Shown: positions 166 through 7,736 of the stretch, piece by piece
Layout: each line of letters starts with the position of its first letter
How positions within the stretch are numbered: the first letter of the stretch is position 1
Sequence record: PV523736.1
DNA from: Enterococcus phage ZJGS3
Reading direction: 5' to 3' (one strand)
DNA: 64,000 nt
The notes under the pieces: generated by a model
The model's database searches: none
What the model was told of the DNA's origin: nothing
What the model saw: only the letters and a program-made list of their open reading frames with translations
Made by a program: the position numbers and the translations under genes

Positions 166-252
166 TGGAAGGCATGGGATTCGAACCCACACATGCTGTT
201 ACACATCTACTTGGTTTCCAACCAAGCCTCTTTACCGTTTGAGTAACCTTCC
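166..252 (-). tRNA. tRNA-Ser (anticodon GGA), type II with long variable arm
   Basis: Reverse complement folds as a cloverleaf. Acceptor GGAAGGT/GCCTTCC with discriminator A. Anticodon stem CTTGG/CCAAG with loop TTGGAAA. T-arm GTGGG-TTCGAAT-CCCAT (seen as ggattcgaaccc on the + strand). Confidence 0.8.
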
Positions 253-347
253 GTCTTGGGAGCAGGCGGGTTTGTGTCAAGTACACAATACCTAATCTTT
301 TGTGCATGTTGTTCCCTAGGCTTCATGCACACCCTACTATCTGCATA

Positions 348-533
348 CTAACAGACCTGCCAATTTTCTAACACTTTTTCTAATGCTTCGTATGGACACA
401 TTACTGTCTTACCGTGAACATCATGTATTCTCAAAATAATATAATGCTCATTTATCTCGGAGGTAACAAAGTATATCTTGTCCTTCACTAAACCTAAACT
501 TCCGTTTAAACCAATGAATTTTAAATACATCAT
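348..533 (-). CDS. hypothetical small protein (61 aa)
   Basis: ORF with a strong RBS on the minus strand (GTTAGGAGGTAAC ATG ATG). No recognisable domain. Confidence 0.55.
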   Translation of the reverse strand: MMYLKFIGLNGSLGLVKDKIYFVTSEINEHYIILRIHDVHGKTVMCPYEALEKVLENWQVC

Positions 534-812
534 GTTACCTCCTAACTATGTATAACCCATGAAGCATCATGGGGGGACTGTAGTATGCCCAACCTGCGGG
601 GATGCTCCGCTCTGAATCCGTAGAAATCAGCCACAATTATGTCACTGGTTTAGTCGGCACCTTCGAGATAGGGACATACAGCTTCAATTTTCTAATGGAT
701 TTATAGGAATCTAGCCTTACAGTTGTTTACCCGACTTGTTCTAGACTAGCCTGAATCTTCCCCTGTGCTATACTGTGTTAATTAGCGTTTACCTATTCCG
801 CCACAGTGACTA

Positions 813-1160
813 TGGAGTAGACGGGACTCGAACCCGTGTCCTAACGTAGAACCATACAAAATTCTACGGGCGTAGTTACTAGTTTTAATCTACGTTAAGG
901 TTACAACTAATAACTGAAATTACCTTAACTGAGTGGTAAAGCCTCTCCTGAGTTATCCACTTTTACCTCAGCGTTGTCGGTTAATGAGTCCTCTAGGTAG
1001 AACCGACCCTAGTCTAGAGGGGTAAGTGTGTAGCTAGTCTAAAACTAGGCTACAGCTAATAATTCTTCGTTTTTAGCAGTTATATTTACTGCGATGATTA
1101 AGTCATCACTCTGCCCGCTATTCATATATTTCTTACGCCAGTCGAAACCAAAACTACCCC
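813..1160 (-). ncRNA. ssrA: tmRNA (ssrA-like transfer-messenger RNA), phage-encoded. Tag reading frame at 1045-1077 encodes (A)AKNEELLAVA-stop.
   Basis: 5' end GGGGTAGTTTTGGTTTCGACTGGCG matches the tmRNA 5' consensus GGGGnnGnTTnnGGnTTCGACnGG. 3' end GGACACGGGTTCGAGTCCCGTCTACTCCA has the tRNA-like T-arm and an acceptor pairing with the 5' GGGGTAG (one G.U pair). Internal ...GTAAATATAACT GCT AAA AAC GAA GAA TTA TTA GCT GTA GCC TAG... gives a resume codon after the ATATAACT motif (as in Bacillus tmRNA) and an Ala-rich degron-like tag ending LAVA. Pseudoknot-like inverted repeats lie downstream (for example cctctag...ctagagg). Confidence 0.8.
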
Positions 1161-1393
1161 AACATAAGAATTTCTTTTGACTAACCCTACCCTTCCGGCA
1201 GGGTCTAATCAAAAGTATACAATTAAAAAAATGAAAATGAGTTACGGAAAATGTAACATCTCCACCACCGGACTATAAGGGTAAGTTGTTCCGGTCTTTA
1301 ACCTAAGTACTTTACTTAAATCTAACAGGACAGTCTTCATTACGTAAACTACTTAACCATGTAAAACGTAAAGGTCAATTTCCGTTGACCTAA

Positions 1394-1478
1394 TACAAGA
1401 GGAGGGATTCGAACCCTCACGCCCATCATAGGCATGGCATTCTAAGTGCCACATGTCTACCAATTCCAACACTCTCGC
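1394..1478 (-). tRNA. tRNA-Leu (anticodon TAG), type II
   Basis: Acceptor GCGAGAG/CTCTTGT (two G.U pairs). Anticodon stem TGGCA/TGCCA with loop CTTAGAA. Long variable arm. T-arm GAGGG-TTCGAAT-CCCTC. Confidence 0.75.
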
Positions 1479-1562
1479 ATAATAACAGCCCTACCCACCT
1501 ACTGTTCTGCTAGCATATAGCTTGCAGGCTTTTTATCTGTGTTATAAAAACCAGAAAGGTTA

Positions 1563-1646
1563 TACAGGTAACAGGAGTCGAACCTGCATGTCACAAAGGA
1601 CAATGGATTTTAAGTCCACAGCGTATACCAATTCCGCCATACCCGC
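1563..1646 (-). tRNA. tRNA-Leu (anticodon TAA), type II
   Basis: Acceptor GCGGGTA/TACCTGT (two G.U pairs). Anticodon loop CTTAAAA. Long variable arm. T-arm GCAGG-TTCGACT-CCTGT. Confidence 0.7.
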
Positions 1647-1823
1647 ATAATCACTTTTTAAACTAGATTATTTATGATTCCTCACTTCTGGAAAAATACC
1701 ACTTTATATATCAACATTTTTCTTATGAATGGGTTAAGATATGTTTTAACGAAAAAGAGGCTAAAAGAGTATTTCCTCAAAATTTTCGGTCAAGTTAATC
1801 TAGTAAGGAAAAGTGTAACCTTA

Positions 1824-1894
1824 TGTGACTGCTCAGAATCGAACTGAGATTCATGTTTCCACAGAACACTGCCTTACCATTAGGCTACAGTCAC
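1824..1894 (-). tRNA. tRNA-His (anticodon GTG)
   Basis: Perfect acceptor GTGACTG/CAGTCAC. D-arm GCCT-AATGGTA-AGGC. Anticodon loop CTGTGGA. T-arm CTCAG-TTCGATT-CTGAG. Confidence 0.8.
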
Positions 1895-1966
1895 CATCAT
1901 GTGTTCCTTACAAGAATTACTATACAGCATCTTGTAAGGAAAGTCAACACTTACATATAAATTTAT

Positions 1967-2188
1967 TTAAAAAAGTTTTGATGAATCTAATTGAGAGAAA
2001 CTTTCGGGTAGAGAACCTAGCTCTTCCATGTACTCTTGGTCAATCTCGTAAACAGTTAACTCCGTTACTTCATTTTCAATGGTAAGTTTCATTGCTTCTG
2101 CTGTTTGTATACTGTGTCCTTCTACTTGAAGCTTATCATCAAGATAAATGCCTTCCCAGTCTCCTGCAACTACATAATCTGCTTTCAA
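1967..2188 (-). CDS. hypothetical small protein (73 aa), probable TTG start
   Basis: ORF between tRNA genes. Upstream GAGGAGAAAG RBS-like sequence. Acidic protein with no recognisable domain. Confidence 0.4.
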   Translation of the reverse strand: MKADYVVAGDWEGIYLDDKLQVEGHSIQTAEAMKLTIENEVTELTVYEIDQEYMEELGSLPESFSQLDSSKLF

Positions 2189-2196
2189 GATATTAC

Positions 2197-6323: not shown

Positions 6324-6328
6324 ATAAA

Positions 6329-6403
6329 CGAGCTATATGGGACTTGAACCCATGACCTTCTCCGTGACAGGGAGACGAGCACTCCTGACTGCTCCAATAG
6401 CCC
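6329..6403 (-). tRNA. tRNA-Asp (anticodon GTC)
   Basis: Acceptor GGGCTAT/ATAGCTC. D-arm GAGC-AGTCAGGAGT-GCTC. Anticodon stem TCTCC/GGAGA with loop CTGTCAC. T-arm ATGGG-TTCAAGT-CCCAT. Confidence 0.75.
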
Positions 6404-6528
6404 ACTGTTTCCCCAACCACCGCCACCTAGGGGATTCGTACGTCTACGTGAGTTTTCTGGTTATACATTATTGTTCAAGACAATAGTTGTACGAGTGGAA
6501 TACCAATTTACCACTCTGCGGTTCCTAT

Positions 6529-6600
6529 TGCGGTAGGTGGGAGTCGAACCCACTAAAGCTTGGTTATGAGCCAAGTGCCTAAACCGTTCGGCATCTCCGC
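6529..6600 (-). tRNA. tRNA-Met/fMet/Ile2 (anticodon CAT), second CAT tRNA
   Basis: Perfect anticodon arm CTTGG-CTCATAA-CCAAG. T-arm GTGGG-TTCGACT-CCCAC. Acceptor GCGGAGA/CTACCGC has two mismatches at pairs 5 and 7. Confidence 0.65.
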
Positions 6601-7303
6601 AGTAATACAAGTCTGGTTAAAAACTCAAAACTTAATAGATTAAGGGCTTTTCTTCCTGCTTCATATACACTCACTGCATTCGGTCACATACTCAGAGAGG
6701 CTGAACCATCGGGAGCTACCCAATAGCTTCTCTCTGCCTTTAATGTATGGTCTAGCACGGTGGCTAACAACGTTCACCTAAACATTCAGCATTAAAAGTA
6801 TTATTTTACATATAACCCATATGTCTTCTGTAATATTTTCATCCAACGCTGACTTAAGCTACTTGTACCAAGGTCTCTTGTTAAACCTGTATTTCTACAG
6901 TTCTCGTCAAAGGGAGTCTTTTGAGTTTTCCAAGGTCTGCCAAGCTTCTCACACTTCCACCTAACTTGGATTCTTTTCCACAGGAACGTCTATTGTATCC
7001 CCCAAGAGTCTTGTACCTTACAATCCATGTATACTCCACATAACGCTTAACTGATATTAGCTTTTACTAATAGTTACTCCTATGTTACCATAAGACCTAC
7101 CTGCAACCCAAAGCACTATCGCACCTTCGGTTACATCCAGATTCACGCCACGTTATCCTAGCAAGCTGTTCAAACTTTCTGCACTAGGTTCAAAATCTAT
7201 TAAGTTTTCAATTTTTAACCACTAACTTGTGGTGTAATACTAATATAGCATAACATTACAAAGTTGTAAACACCTTTTTGTAAGTTTTTTTGATTTTTTT
7301 TGA

Positions 7304-7392
7304 TGGAAGGTAAGGGGGTCGAACCCTTACACCGGATTTCTCCGACCTAACTGATTAGCAATCAGCCCTCTTAACCATTTGAGTAACCTTCC
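7304..7392 (-). tRNA. tRNA-Ser (anticodon GCT), type II
   Basis: Perfect acceptor GGAAGGT/ACCTTCC. Anticodon stem CTGAT/ATCAG with loop TGCTAAT. Long variable arm. T-arm AAGGG-TTCGACC-CCCTT. Confidence 0.8.
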
Positions 7393-7402
7393 AAAAGCAA
7401 AA

Positions 7403-7436
7403 AGGGAACCCCTGTAATTAAACAGGGGTAAGAGAG
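7403..7436 (-). terminator. intrinsic terminator-like hairpin (CCCCTG-taattaaa-CAGGGG followed by a T-run on the minus strand)
   Basis: Reverse complement reads CCCCTGTTTAATTACAGGGGTTCCCTTTTT. Confidence 0.5.
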
Positions 7437-7501
7437 ATGTCTCTAAAAGCCTACAACCATTATAACATAGAAACATAGTTTGTACAGCCGTAACTGTACA
7501 A

Positions 7502-7573
7502 CTGTCAGGACAGGGTTCGAACCTGTATCGCAACCTTCAAAGGGTCGTGTCCTACCTGTTAGACGACCTGACA
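7502..7573 (-). tRNA. tRNA-Gln (anticodon TTG)
   Basis: Perfect acceptor TGTCAGG/CCTGACA. Anticodon loop CTTTGAA on CGACC/GGTTG stem. T-arm CAGG-TTCGAAC-CCTG. Confidence 0.75.
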
Positions 7574-7582
7574 AAAAGGTGG

Positions 7583-7620
7583 AACCTCCCTAAATTTGGG
7601 GAAGAGGGAGGTTCTCATGC
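7583..7620 (-). terminator. 10-bp perfect hairpin GAACCTCCCT/AGGGAGGTTC followed by TTTTT on the minus strand
   Basis: Inverted repeat read directly. A T-run follows on the minus strand, immediately upstream of tRNA-Gln. Confidence 0.45.
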
Positions 7621-7665
7621 TATTAACAAACACGAATTTGCTAACCAAGTAATCTTGACTAGCAA

Positions 7666-7736
7666 CTCACCTAGCAGGACTTGAACCTACAAGAACTGGT
7701 TAACAGCCAGTCATGATACCGTTTCATCATAGGTGA
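7666..7736 (-). tRNA. tRNA-Asn (anticodon GTT)
   Basis: Perfect acceptor TCACCTA/TAGGTGA. Anticodon stem ACTGG/CCAGT with loop CTGTTAA. T-arm GTAGG-TTCAAGT-CCTGC. Confidence 0.75.

Follow-up and report, generated by a model that had tools for sequence, protein, structure and literature searches.

The tRNA cluster of phage T4 contains eight transfer RNA (tRNA) genes and two stable RNAs (species 1 and 2) without known function, and is processed by host RNase P. The locus considered here is an array of tRNA genes and other RNA genes in Enterococcus phage ZJGS3 (PV523736.1), located near the left end of a 64,000-nucleotide (nt) stretch of DNA which is called the window below. The T4 cluster resembles this array and its relatives in being compact, in lacking encoded CCA ends, and in mixing tRNAs with tRNA-like stable RNAs and homing-endonuclease genes. 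It differs in its partial set of eight tRNAs and in having neither a transfer-messenger RNA (tmRNA) nor a ROOL RNA, and the two loci have no sequence relationship. The SegB homing endonuclease of the T4 cluster has been considered together with the amplification of anti-defence loci (PMC13096335).

The tRNA region of phage T5 is, like the present one, a large set in a virulent phage, and includes Lys and Tyr isoacceptors, the targets of PARIS and retron Eco7 (PMC11464382, PMC11555353). In T5, rescue is experimentally proven and the protective tRNAs differ from those of the host at cleavage determinants, whereas for the array of Schiekvirus, the genus to which the present locus belongs, such a role is only a possibility. 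In the Listeria phage CKA15 (P100-like), tRNA genes are followed on one strand by a gene for an Rsr/Ro-like RNA-binding protein and then by a gene for a helix-turn-helix (HTH) regulator (PMC12282133), an order shared with Schiekvirus. CKA15 belongs to another genus and infects another host, and ROOL and tmRNA are not reported there; Schiekvirus has Y-RNA-like genes detectable with the Rfam YrlA model, at E values of 2e-7 and 7e-5 and below the gathering score. Arrays of Mycobacterium and mycobacteriophages containing GOLLD RNA are also similar in that a large ornate cage-forming RNA lies within a tRNA array, as far as they are summarized in PMC12286853 (citing Morgado 2020). GOLLD is another RNA family, and some GOLLDs contain a tRNA internally, whereas in the window a tRNA follows ROOL. 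ROOL RNAs occur in phages and prophages, often in tRNA islands, and form hexameric or octameric cages with no function known (PMC5737381, PMC12286853, PMC12990946). Nanocage structures have been determined by cryo-electron microscopy (cryo-EM) for the env-120, E. faecalis ("Efa") and L. salivarius ROOL RNAs.

For Schiekvirus, arrays of 21-24 tRNAs have been described (PMC9860891, PMC10054541, PMC7563437), including 22 tRNAs and a tmRNA in phage iF6 (PMC10054541) and 24 tRNAs serving 19 amino acids in phage A2 (PMC7563437). The tRNA array as such is already known, because it is annotated in dozens of Schiekvirus records and mentioned in papers, and large arrays are a recognized trait of the Brockvirinae. 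The region analyzed here is the right-hand ~8 kb of an island of RNA genes, transcribed leftward, in an Enterococcus phage of the genus Schiekvirus (Herelleviridae, Brockvirinae). In the window, this island comprises 20 canonical tRNA genes and one cut tRNA gene, a tRNA mimic that lacks an anticodon, genes for a tmRNA, a ROOL RNA and an AAA ATPase, and four small open reading frames (ORFs). On balance, gene content and conservation favor the view that the island is a general supply sustaining translation, transcribed in several units and making the phage independent of the tRNA pool of its host, while its core is shaped by codon bias.

Identity and tRNA Content of the Island

The first 9 kb of the window is 99.9% identical at the nucleotide level to Enterococcus phage EA1, 99.7% to ZJGS4 and 98.5% to EFDG1, the type species, and about 30 other Schiekvirus phages, EFDG1 included, show 93-99% identity to it; 27 database records cover at least 80% of this 9-kb query. 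Gene order and strand are the same as in the EFDG1-type relatives, and about 20 genes keep their order and identity across dozens of isolates from four continents. The arrays of EFDG1, EfV12-phi1, iF6, vB_EfaH_163, A2, ZJGS4 and EA1 represent the same locus at 93-99.9% nucleotide identity, without substantive difference. The window differs from several Schiekvirus relatives in a 94-amino-acid ORF (2502-2786) and a 230-nt spacer between the tRNA-Trp and tRNA-Cys genes, which those relatives lack. GenBank records of the relatives carry tRNA annotation of the same array, and the tmRNA is annotated in some of them.

The search for tRNA genes covered the whole window with ARAGORN (default settings and the relaxed -ps mode) and Rfam at curated thresholds (tRNA gathering score, 29 bits). 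ARAGORN at default settings reported 19 tRNAs and one tmRNA, all on the minus strand and within 166-7737, and no further tRNA or tmRNA in the rest of the 64-kb window. Within this span, Rfam scored 21 tRNA matches at 33-74 bits (E values from 4e-3 to 3e-14). Nineteen genes were called by both (49-74 bits), and a second tRNA with the anticodon CAU was called only by relaxed ARAGORN and Rfam. All 20 tRNAs that had been folded by hand in a first-pass annotation of the window were recovered one-to-one with the same anticodons and strand, 19 by default ARAGORN and the twentieth by relaxed ARAGORN and Rfam. The two Lys isoacceptors (UUU and CUU) and two CAU tRNAs that it listed are present, and the array ends that it placed at 166 and 7736 were right to within 1 nt. 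Its description of this span as a tRNA array applies to the tRNAs, but the span does not consist solely of them, as it also holds the tmRNA, ROOL, the tRNA-like RNA, the AAA ATPase gene and the four ORFs.

All genes of the array are on the minus strand. From right to left, i.e., in the direction of transcription, the first gene encodes tRNA-Asn(GUU) (7665-7737; Rfam 58.8 bits), followed by tRNA-Gln(UUG) (7501-7574; 60.1 bits) and tRNA-Ser(GCU) (7302-7393; 56.1 bits). Beyond ROOL lie the second tRNA(CAU) (6528-6601; Rfam 43.4 bits and ARAGORN -ps; 97-100% conserved), tRNA-Asp(GUC) (6328-6404; 56.0 bits), tRNA-Glu(UUC) (6251-6324; 65.6 bits), a tRNA(CAU) of elongator type, either Met or Ile2 (5971-6044; 65.7 bits), tRNA-Trp(CCA) (5688-5761; 52.6 bits), tRNA-Cys(GCA) (5376-5448; 58.5 bits) and tRNA-Phe(GAA) (5180-5253; 70.2 bits). 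The ATPase gene separates tRNA-Phe from tRNA-Thr(UGU) (3952-4023; 57.2 bits), after which come tRNA-Lys(CUU) (3685-3760; 63.1 bits), tRNA-Lys(UUU) (3476-3552; 67.8 bits; canonical anticodon loop CUUUUAA), tRNA-Arg(ACG) (3303-3375; 55.5 bits), tRNA-Val(UAC) (3122-3193; 73.6 bits), tRNA-Ile(GAU) (2895-2968; 67.7 bits), tRNA-His(GUG) (1824-1894; 64.8 bits), tRNA-Leu(UAA) (1562-1647; 54.7 bits), tRNA-Leu(UAG) (1393-1479; 49.0 bits) and tRNA-Ser(GGA) (166-252; 52.8 bits). All of these but the second tRNA(CAU) are default ARAGORN calls. At positions 1-70, the 5' 70 nt of a tRNA-Ser(UGA) gene are cut by the window edge; the full homolog is present in ZJGS4 (L001 1482-1570 and L003 11330-11418; window positions equal ZJGS4 L001 positions minus 1500). 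In near-identical relatives the array extends past this edge, and ZJGS4 adds Ser-UGA, Arg-UCU, Ala-UGC, Pro-UGG, Gly-UCC and Tyr-GUA.

The anticodon loops are canonical throughout, with 7 nt, U33 and a purine at position 37. None of the tRNA genes encodes CCA, and maturation would therefore depend on the RNase Z and CCA-adding route. Both CAU tRNAs have a paired G1-C72 and an anticodon stem without GGG/CCC, and thus the set contains no initiator tRNA. The second CAU tRNA is labeled Ile in phage 113, Met in EFDG1 and a pseudogene in Porthos. In comparison with phiSHEF13, the most divergent Schiekvirus compared, identity is 98.0% for the tRNAs, 97.4% for the tmRNA and 97.4% for ROOL, against 90.1% for protein-coding sequence and 92.7% for spacers, indicating that the RNA genes are more strongly constrained than their surroundings.

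Three spacers (~3610-3680, ~3790-3860 and ~5817-5889, minus strand) contain tRNA-like remnants with T-arm GGTTCGAATCC motifs, one of them with a CAU-type loop; these are probably decayed tRNA copies. Calls made by ARAGORN at ps80 with introns allowed had kilobase-sized "introns" or lay inside ROOL and the ATPase gene, and were discarded as noise.

The tRNA content of related arrays varies. Phage 113 lacks Asp, Ser-GCU and Gln, with one Endo VII and two HNH genes in their place, and a GIY-YIG gene adjoins its tmRNA gene. Among the IMG/VR variants, L138 carries a smaller set that includes Arg-UCG, and Lys-UUU occurs twice in L137. Schiekvirus arrays are rich in HNH, GIY-YIG and Endo VII genes, and in close relatives homing-endonuclease genes are found at differing array sites (phage 113, L002 2351-3073, 8196-8696 and 9622-11063; L007 1801-2373 and 4951-5472). 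The arrays of sister lineages are small, with five annotated tRNAs in EF24C (seven by relaxed ARAGORN) and six in Revolver, as against about 27 in Schiekvirus. In database host fields, Kochikohdavirus (5-7 tRNAs) is recorded almost only from E. faecalis, and Schiekvirus from E. faecalis, E. faecium, E. mundtii and E. avium. This pattern is in line with a connection between host breadth and the possession of many tRNAs, as a correlation drawn from database host fields only.

Decoding Capacity and Codon Usage

When the six tRNAs known from relatives are included, the set has 25 different anticodons and serves all 20 amino acids. U34 is used in four-codon boxes and G34 in two-codon boxes ending in pyrimidines; Arg is read by ACG and UCU, Leu by UAA and UAG, and Ile by GAU and possibly a lysidine-type CAU. 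The only extras beyond about one tRNA per codon box are Lys-CUU and Ser-GGA. By standard wobble rules, these 25 anticodons would read all codons except CGG in 34 long window ORFs (15,660 of 15,685, or 99.8%), and exact Watson-Crick matches read 53%. This design indicates a minimal universal decoding set rather than a supplement for rare codons.

Codon usage was compared with a host proxy consisting of 39 ORFs around tuf from eight Enterococcus species, neither E. faecalis nor E. faecium being among them; these tuf loci contain no tRNA genes. As a share of the codons for the respective amino acid, the phage uses AGA at 26% versus 3% in the proxy, AUA at 11% versus 3%, CUA at 18% versus 10%, AAG at 28% versus 14% and GAG at 26% versus 9%; AGG, CGA and AGU are also over-used. 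GAG is the fourth most enriched codon, yet the set has no Glu-CUC tRNA. The small arrays of EF24C and Revolver keep Arg-UCU, Leu-UAG and a CAU tRNA, in addition to Trp, Tyr, Asp or Pro. Codon compensation thus plausibly explains the conserved core of the set and also predicts Lys-CUU, but would not explain the whole. An earlier suggestion that the tRNAs compensate for codon usage in an AT-rich phage fits part of the set, in that AGA, CUA, AAG, AGU and, less certainly, AUA are over-used and matched by tRNAs. Its premise of AT-richness is not, as the computed phage G+C content is ~38% and published values are 37% for the phage and 37.8% for E. faecium (PMC9860891). Likewise, the comparison with the Enterococcus proxy accounts for part of the set and not for its extent of about one tRNA per box.

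Candidate Promoters, Terminators and Transcription Units

Promoters were sought by consensus with spacers of 16-18 nt and terminators as hairpins followed by a T-run, and both scans were compared with the expectation from shuffled sequences. Upstream of the array, the extended -10 element that the first-pass annotation had placed ahead of tRNA-Asn is present as TGTTATAAT at 7754-7762 (minus strand), 17 nt upstream of this gene. The promoter-like site that includes it, P1 (7741-7784; TTGCTA-19-TGtTATAAT), matches TGNTATAAT, contains an inverted repeat and is conserved in relatives. Its best -35 element is TTGCTA at 7779-7784, at a non-canonical spacing of 19 nt; P1 is not listed by the standard scan, because this spacer is outside the 16-18 nt range. 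A 16-nt inverted repeat, TAGTTCTATCA...TGATAGAACTA (7741-7756 and 7765-7780), flanks the P1 -10 element on both sides and may be an operator for a dimeric regulator.

Further candidate promoters lie inside the array, all on the minus strand. P2 (7459-7486; TGTACA-16-TGtTATAAT), ahead of tRNA-Ser(GCU), includes a second perfect TGTTATAAT at 7459-7467, was found by the consensus scan and is conserved. P3 (7242-7270; TTTACA-17-TATATT with a TG extension; 10 of 12 consensus positions plus TG) is located ~20 nt upstream of the ROOL helix and is identical in five Schiekvirus relatives. P4 (5898-5926; TTGACT-17-TACTAT; consensus scan) and P6 (1919-1947; TTGACT-17-TATAGT; 10 of 12), which is upstream of tRNA-His, are both conserved in relatives and contain two copies of a 21-nt TTGACT module, AAGTGTTGACTTTCnnTACAA. 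Directly 3' of tRNA-Met(CAU) and immediately ahead of P4, the scan found an intrinsic terminator-like hairpin (5966-5945), with a 9-bp GC-rich stem followed by TTATTTTTAT and a trailer fold of -13.0 kcal/mol, which is also conserved. Asn, Gln, Thr and Leu-UAG likewise have hairpins adjoining their 3' ends. Terminator-like sites are enriched over the shuffled expectation (16 versus 5.6), although some of them are tRNA T-arms. The promoter-like and terminator-like sites of the array are all conserved in five Schiekvirus relatives.

These sites bear on the earlier proposal of a promoter at 7754-7783 from which the entire array is transcribed. The promoter element stands, but its role as the sole promoter is not supported, given the predicted internal sites P2, P3, P4 and P6 and the terminator-like hairpin at 5966-5945. 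Because of these internal promoter candidates and the strong putative terminator, several transcription units are favored over one operon, and the array is probably not a single operon. An analogous case that supports this view is the Listeria Herelleviridae phage CKA15, in which transcript mapping gave several sigma-A-type promoters and very abundant unannotated RNAs beside the tRNA genes (PMC12282133).

Upstream of the array, a terminator-like hairpin (8155-8175, minus strand; hairpin scan) would close a leftward protein operon encoding, according to Pfam and PHROG assignments, a virion protein and a hemolysin-like protein. The AT-rich 400 nt between this terminator and the tRNA array contain a 58-nt imperfect inverted repeat with 74% complementarity (7975-8137).

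ROOL RNA

The ROOL RNA gene is located at 6614-7221 on the minus strand. The Rfam match (RF03087; 6626-7212) scores 260.1 bits, against a gathering score of 99.1, and covers model positions 1-574 of 574; a 28-nt closing helix (6614-6641 and 7194-7221) extends beyond it. In an alignment of four Brockvirinae sequences, compensatory double changes occur in 39 of 166 predicted pairs, a count that leans towards the predicted structure because the same alignment served for its prediction. The stretch over which these four sequences defy alignment corresponds to the variable linker of the family. The window RNA thus shares with the family the full-length match, covarying helices and the tRNA-island context; cage assembly is demonstrated for other members of the family (PMC12286853, PMC12990946). 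Family and structure assignments indicate a previously unannotated copy of a known family and no novel kind of RNA. At E values up to 1, Rfam found in the window no Y RNA or other meaningful family beyond tRNA, tmRNA and ROOL, the remaining matches being tRNA look-alikes or chance.

ROOL is present in 67 Enterococcus phage records, with 95-100% identity in Schiekvirus, ~89% in Kochikohdavirus and 71% in Revolver. None of the 40 records listed annotates it, and a few carry spurious small ORFs over it. In EF24C and Revolver, ROOL opens the leftward RNA block, directly after the virion-protein and hemolysin-like genes, and in Schiekvirus three tRNA genes are ahead of it; in the window a CAU tRNA follows 12-24 nt further on. 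Sequence comparison identifies ROOL as the conserved part of the island in the three phage lineages, the arrays of which contain 5-7, 6 and ~27 tRNAs. A promoter-like site precedes ROOL in all three, that of EF24C being TTGACA-18-TGcTATTAT, and ROOL appears to have its own promoter. The sites themselves differ and are non-homologous: matches of the ROOL promoter to EF24C and Revolver were spurious local alignments, and homology across genera was rejected. In comparison with the family, this copy is distinctive in lying at the head of the island or close to it, in phages that are virulent and cultivable, with a promoter-like site ahead and a tRNA 12-24 nt after it. ROOL also occurs (367 bits) within an array of 12 tRNAs on an unrelated viral contig of 115 kb, where it lies 24 nt after tRNA-Pro.

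In phages 21C1 and 163, the BLAST match to ROOL consists of two pieces spanning 1088 nt (in 21C1, L004 2088-2588), which points to partial duplication, with ~500 nt repeated on the downstream side of the intact ROOL.

tmRNA and an Anticodon-less tRNA-like RNA

A full-length tmRNA gene (ssrA) is located at 810-1160 on the minus strand, identified by ARAGORN and by Rfam (RF00023; 145.1 bits versus a gathering score of 47; model positions 1-374). The acceptor stem, GGGGUAG/CUACUCC, includes an alanine-type G3.U pair (G3.U70), and the tag reading frame, encoding AKNEELLAVA, is closed by a stop codon. The full model, the Ala-like acceptor stem and the stop-ended tag frame identify this RNA as a tmRNA. 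The tag ends in LAVA, not in the usual ALAA, and is identical in every Schiekvirus relative examined. In the arrays of EF24C and Revolver that were compared, the tmRNA is absent.

The twenty-first Rfam tRNA match (33.3 bits) is a 96-nt RNA at 3200-3295 (minus strand), 7 nt after tRNA-Arg(ACG) and 6 nt before tRNA-Val; given this spacing, it would be freed by the same processing enzymes. In the predicted fold, the acceptor stem (7 bp) and D arm are accompanied by a 4-bp hairpin with a loop of 3 nt at the place of the anticodon arm, a 5-bp stem with an 18-nt loop, and a normal T arm. No 7-nt anticodon loop can be drawn within 3200-3295, and this RNA is therefore tRNA-like rather than a decoding tRNA. 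An intron-containing or Sec-type tRNA was considered and rejected, as the ARAGORN intron search gave no call and the 7-nt loop is missing. Phage 113 labels it "tRNA-OTHER", and it is unannotated in the other ROOL-bearing records listed.

Six sequence variants from relatives share this architecture, with a hairpin of 4-5 bp and a loop of 3-5 nt and a second stem with a loop of 18-20 nt. Compensatory changes are found in every helix: the D stem has a G-C to A-U double substitution in Porthos and SHEF16, the short hairpin varies between ACGG/CCGU and CCGUG/CACGG by double substitutions, and the long-loop stem between GGGAG/CUCCU and GGAAG/CUUCU or CUUCC. Between the window and phiSHEF13 the RNA is only 71% identical, versus >95% for its neighbors, and thus it evolves fast but retains its shape. 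The large loop always contains a self-complementary tract of 8-10 nt, the sequence of which varies (AGUGCACU, AUUCGCGAAU and AUUCAUGAAU; the loop palindromes are also written AGTGCACT, ATTCGCGAAT and ATTCATGAAT), and the predicted loop-loop duplexes have energies of -11 to -14 kcal/mol. Pairing of this loop with the AGUGCA motif of ROOL was rejected: the ROOL motif is invariant while the loop palindrome changes, and there is no covariation.

Descent from tRNA-Pro is suggested by the acceptor stem and T arm, which match those of a canonical tRNA-Pro(UGG) on an unrelated viral contig (IMG/VR L133). An IMG/VR search with the conserved 3' half returned only EFP01 and one unrelated contig, the latter with a normal tRNA-Pro. 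The nearest precedent is provided by the stable RNAs of the T4 tRNA cluster. As a speculation, the 96-nt RNA might be a dimerizing tRNA mimic acting as a decoy, scaffold or regulator.

Protein Genes and the Left-Hand Neighborhood

Protein genes are interspersed among the RNA genes of the array, also on the minus strand. The largest encodes a 363-amino-acid AAA+ ATPase (4049-5140; Pfam AAA, 1.6e-8; phrog_2376 "ATPase", 7e-120) between tRNA-Phe and tRNA-Thr, with a single domain whose nearest solved relatives, over the P-loop region, are the AAA domains of AFG2/Cdc48/p97. Such a gene also adjoins tRNAs in EF24C. The labels clamp loader and replication factor C given to this protein in relatives were unsupported by Pfam, NCBIfam and PHROG searches. 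The four small ORFs encode 61 amino acids (348-533; a weak match to phrog_9372 and no Pfam or NCBIfam match), 73 amino acids (1967-2188), 83 amino acids (2197-2448) and 94 amino acids (2502-2786; absent from four relatives), the last three belonging to PHROG families without assigned function. Overall, Pfam, NCBIfam and PHROG scans of the array proteins gave only the generic AAA+ assignment and otherwise families without function.

To the left of the array, at a distance of ~2.4-4 kb from the window start, ZJGS4 (L003 7261-9327) and EFDG1 (L134 19625-21696) encode a 510-amino-acid protein with Pfam DUF2828 and DUF7788 domains, a weak vWA match and a Ro60-like architecture, named RNA-binding protein in RefSeq. 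A gene for an HTH regulator adjoins the gene for this Ro-like protein. The 677-nt gap upstream of the Ro-like gene contains two Rfam YrlA matches (43.2 bits, E 1.8e-7; 34.2 bits, E 7.4e-5) below the gathering score of 69; both show the permuted layout of T arm, closed acceptor stem and D arm that is typical of bacterial Y RNAs.

Possible Roles of the Island

In the favored view of the island as a translation-sustaining supply, host sigma-A RNA polymerase would transcribe it from several promoters into a few polycistronic precursors, from which host RNase P and RNase Z would excise the RNAs, and the host CCA-adding enzyme would finish the tRNAs. The products would supply the phage with a full decoding capacity of its own, and the tmRNA would contribute ribosome rescue. 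Phage protein synthesis might thereby stay fast when host tRNAs are limiting, whether at codons rare in the host (AGA, AUA, CUA and AAG), upon decay of the pool after shut-off, or upon cleavage by defence nucleases. Several points weigh against this view. Close relatives have lost single tRNAs (in phage 113, Asp, Ser-GCU and Gln), and the sister genus Kochikohdavirus, recorded on E. faecalis, has only 5-7 tRNAs; the full set is therefore dispensable for growth on at least some hosts. The coverage of 99.8% assumes four-way reading by unmodified U34 and lysidine on one CAU tRNA, and borrows six tRNAs from relatives, located outside the window. The codon proxy overstates the contrast between phage and host, because it is enriched in highly expressed genes. 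The promoters and terminators are consensus matches only, with 26 promoter-like sites versus 24.1 expected by shuffling, and their conservation carries little weight because overall identity is 93-99%.

Among the alternatives, a dedicated anti-defence function ranks next, followed by pure codon compensation and passive cargo. As an anti-defence reservoir, the tRNAs, notably Lys-UUU, Lys-CUU and Tyr, would replace or outlast host tRNAs cut by PrrC/RloC, PARIS, retron-PtuAB/Septu or Schlafen-type systems, and the tmRNA would rescue stalled ribosomes. Precedents exist in the anticodon-loop variants of mycobacteriophage tRNAs (PMC10264068) and in the action of T5 tRNA-Lys against PARIS (PMC11464382) and of T5 tRNA-Tyr against retron Eco7 (PMC11555353), although all of these experiments come from other phages. 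Homing endonucleases in tRNA clusters can amplify anti-defence loci (PMC13096335), and Schiekvirus arrays are full of such genes. The set is complete and not restricted to rare codons, the isoacceptors targeted by known nucleases are present (Lys-UUU and Lys-CUU in the window, Tyr-GUA in relatives), and the structurally selected, anticodon-less tRNA mimic could be a decoy. However, the anticodon loops are all canonical (U33, purine 37 and CUUUUAA for Lys-UUU), so that loop mutations of the evasion type are not evident from the phage side, host tRNAs not having been compared; Lys-CUU is equally predicted by codon usage, as AAG has twice its frequency in the proxy; and the annotation of the flanking region, the only place inspected, includes no RNA ligase or polynucleotide kinase. 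Although these precedents make it plausible, defence as the dedicated purpose is regarded as rather unlikely. Slightly less likely again is that each tRNA is kept only since its codon is commoner in phage than in host genes. Under this explanation, the enrichment of AGA, AGG, AUA, GAG, CGA, AGU, AAG and CUA over the proxy is expected, most enriched codons have a Watson-Crick phage tRNA (Arg-UCU, Lys-CUU, Leu-UAG and possibly the second CAU tRNA), and Arg-UCU, Leu-UAG and a CAU tRNA are retained in the core of EF24C and Revolver. It does not fit with the equal G+C contents of phage and host (37-38%; PMC9860891), with tRNAs for the non-enriched or depleted codons GAA, AAA, CAA, UUC and AUC and for the single codon of Trp, or with the absence of Glu-CUC despite the enrichment of GAG. 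The pattern of one tRNA per box is that of a minimal universal set, and sister phages recorded on E. faecalis get by with 5-7 tRNAs.

The array might also be passive cargo, a playground of recombination and homing endonucleases that collects tRNAs and decaying copies, most of them of little selective value. Differences in tRNA content among close relatives and IMG/VR variants, the tRNA-like remnants in spacers and the pseudo-tRNAs annotated in some relatives would be explained in this way. Against this stand the identity of the tRNAs to those of phiSHEF13 (98.0%, versus 92.7% for spacers and 90.1% for protein-coding sequence), the order and identity of ~20 genes kept in dozens of isolates, and compensatory changes that keep the structure even of the 96-nt tRNA-like RNA, and this explanation is considered very improbable. 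The supply of translation capacity and autonomy thus remains ranked above the three alternatives. Tentatively, and with considerable doubt, ROOL, the tRNAs, the tmRNA, the Ro-like protein with its two Y-RNA-like genes and the 96-nt RNA might be seen as a joint phage RNA-handling system, which might cage, store or protect tRNAs, or else serve to decoy nucleases directed at tRNAs. If this were true, the 96-nt RNA would represent a new class of dimerizing tRNA mimic.

Implications

The interest of this locus lies mainly in the surroundings of the tRNA genes, namely the occurrence in one phage group of ROOL, a near-complete tRNA set, a tmRNA, a tRNA mimic, and an adjacent Ro-like protein with Y-RNA-like genes. 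The function of ROOL has been open since 2017 despite cryo-EM, and virulent, cultivable phages, including the therapeutic candidates EFDG1 and phiEF24C, offer a genetic system for it. The natural variation among these phages, i.e., 5-7, 6 and ~27 tRNAs on mostly the same host genus and single losses to homing endonucleases, constitutes a ready-made experiment for distinguishing codon compensation, autonomy and anti-defence. The question of why phages carry tRNAs bears on the host range and robustness of these phages in therapy.

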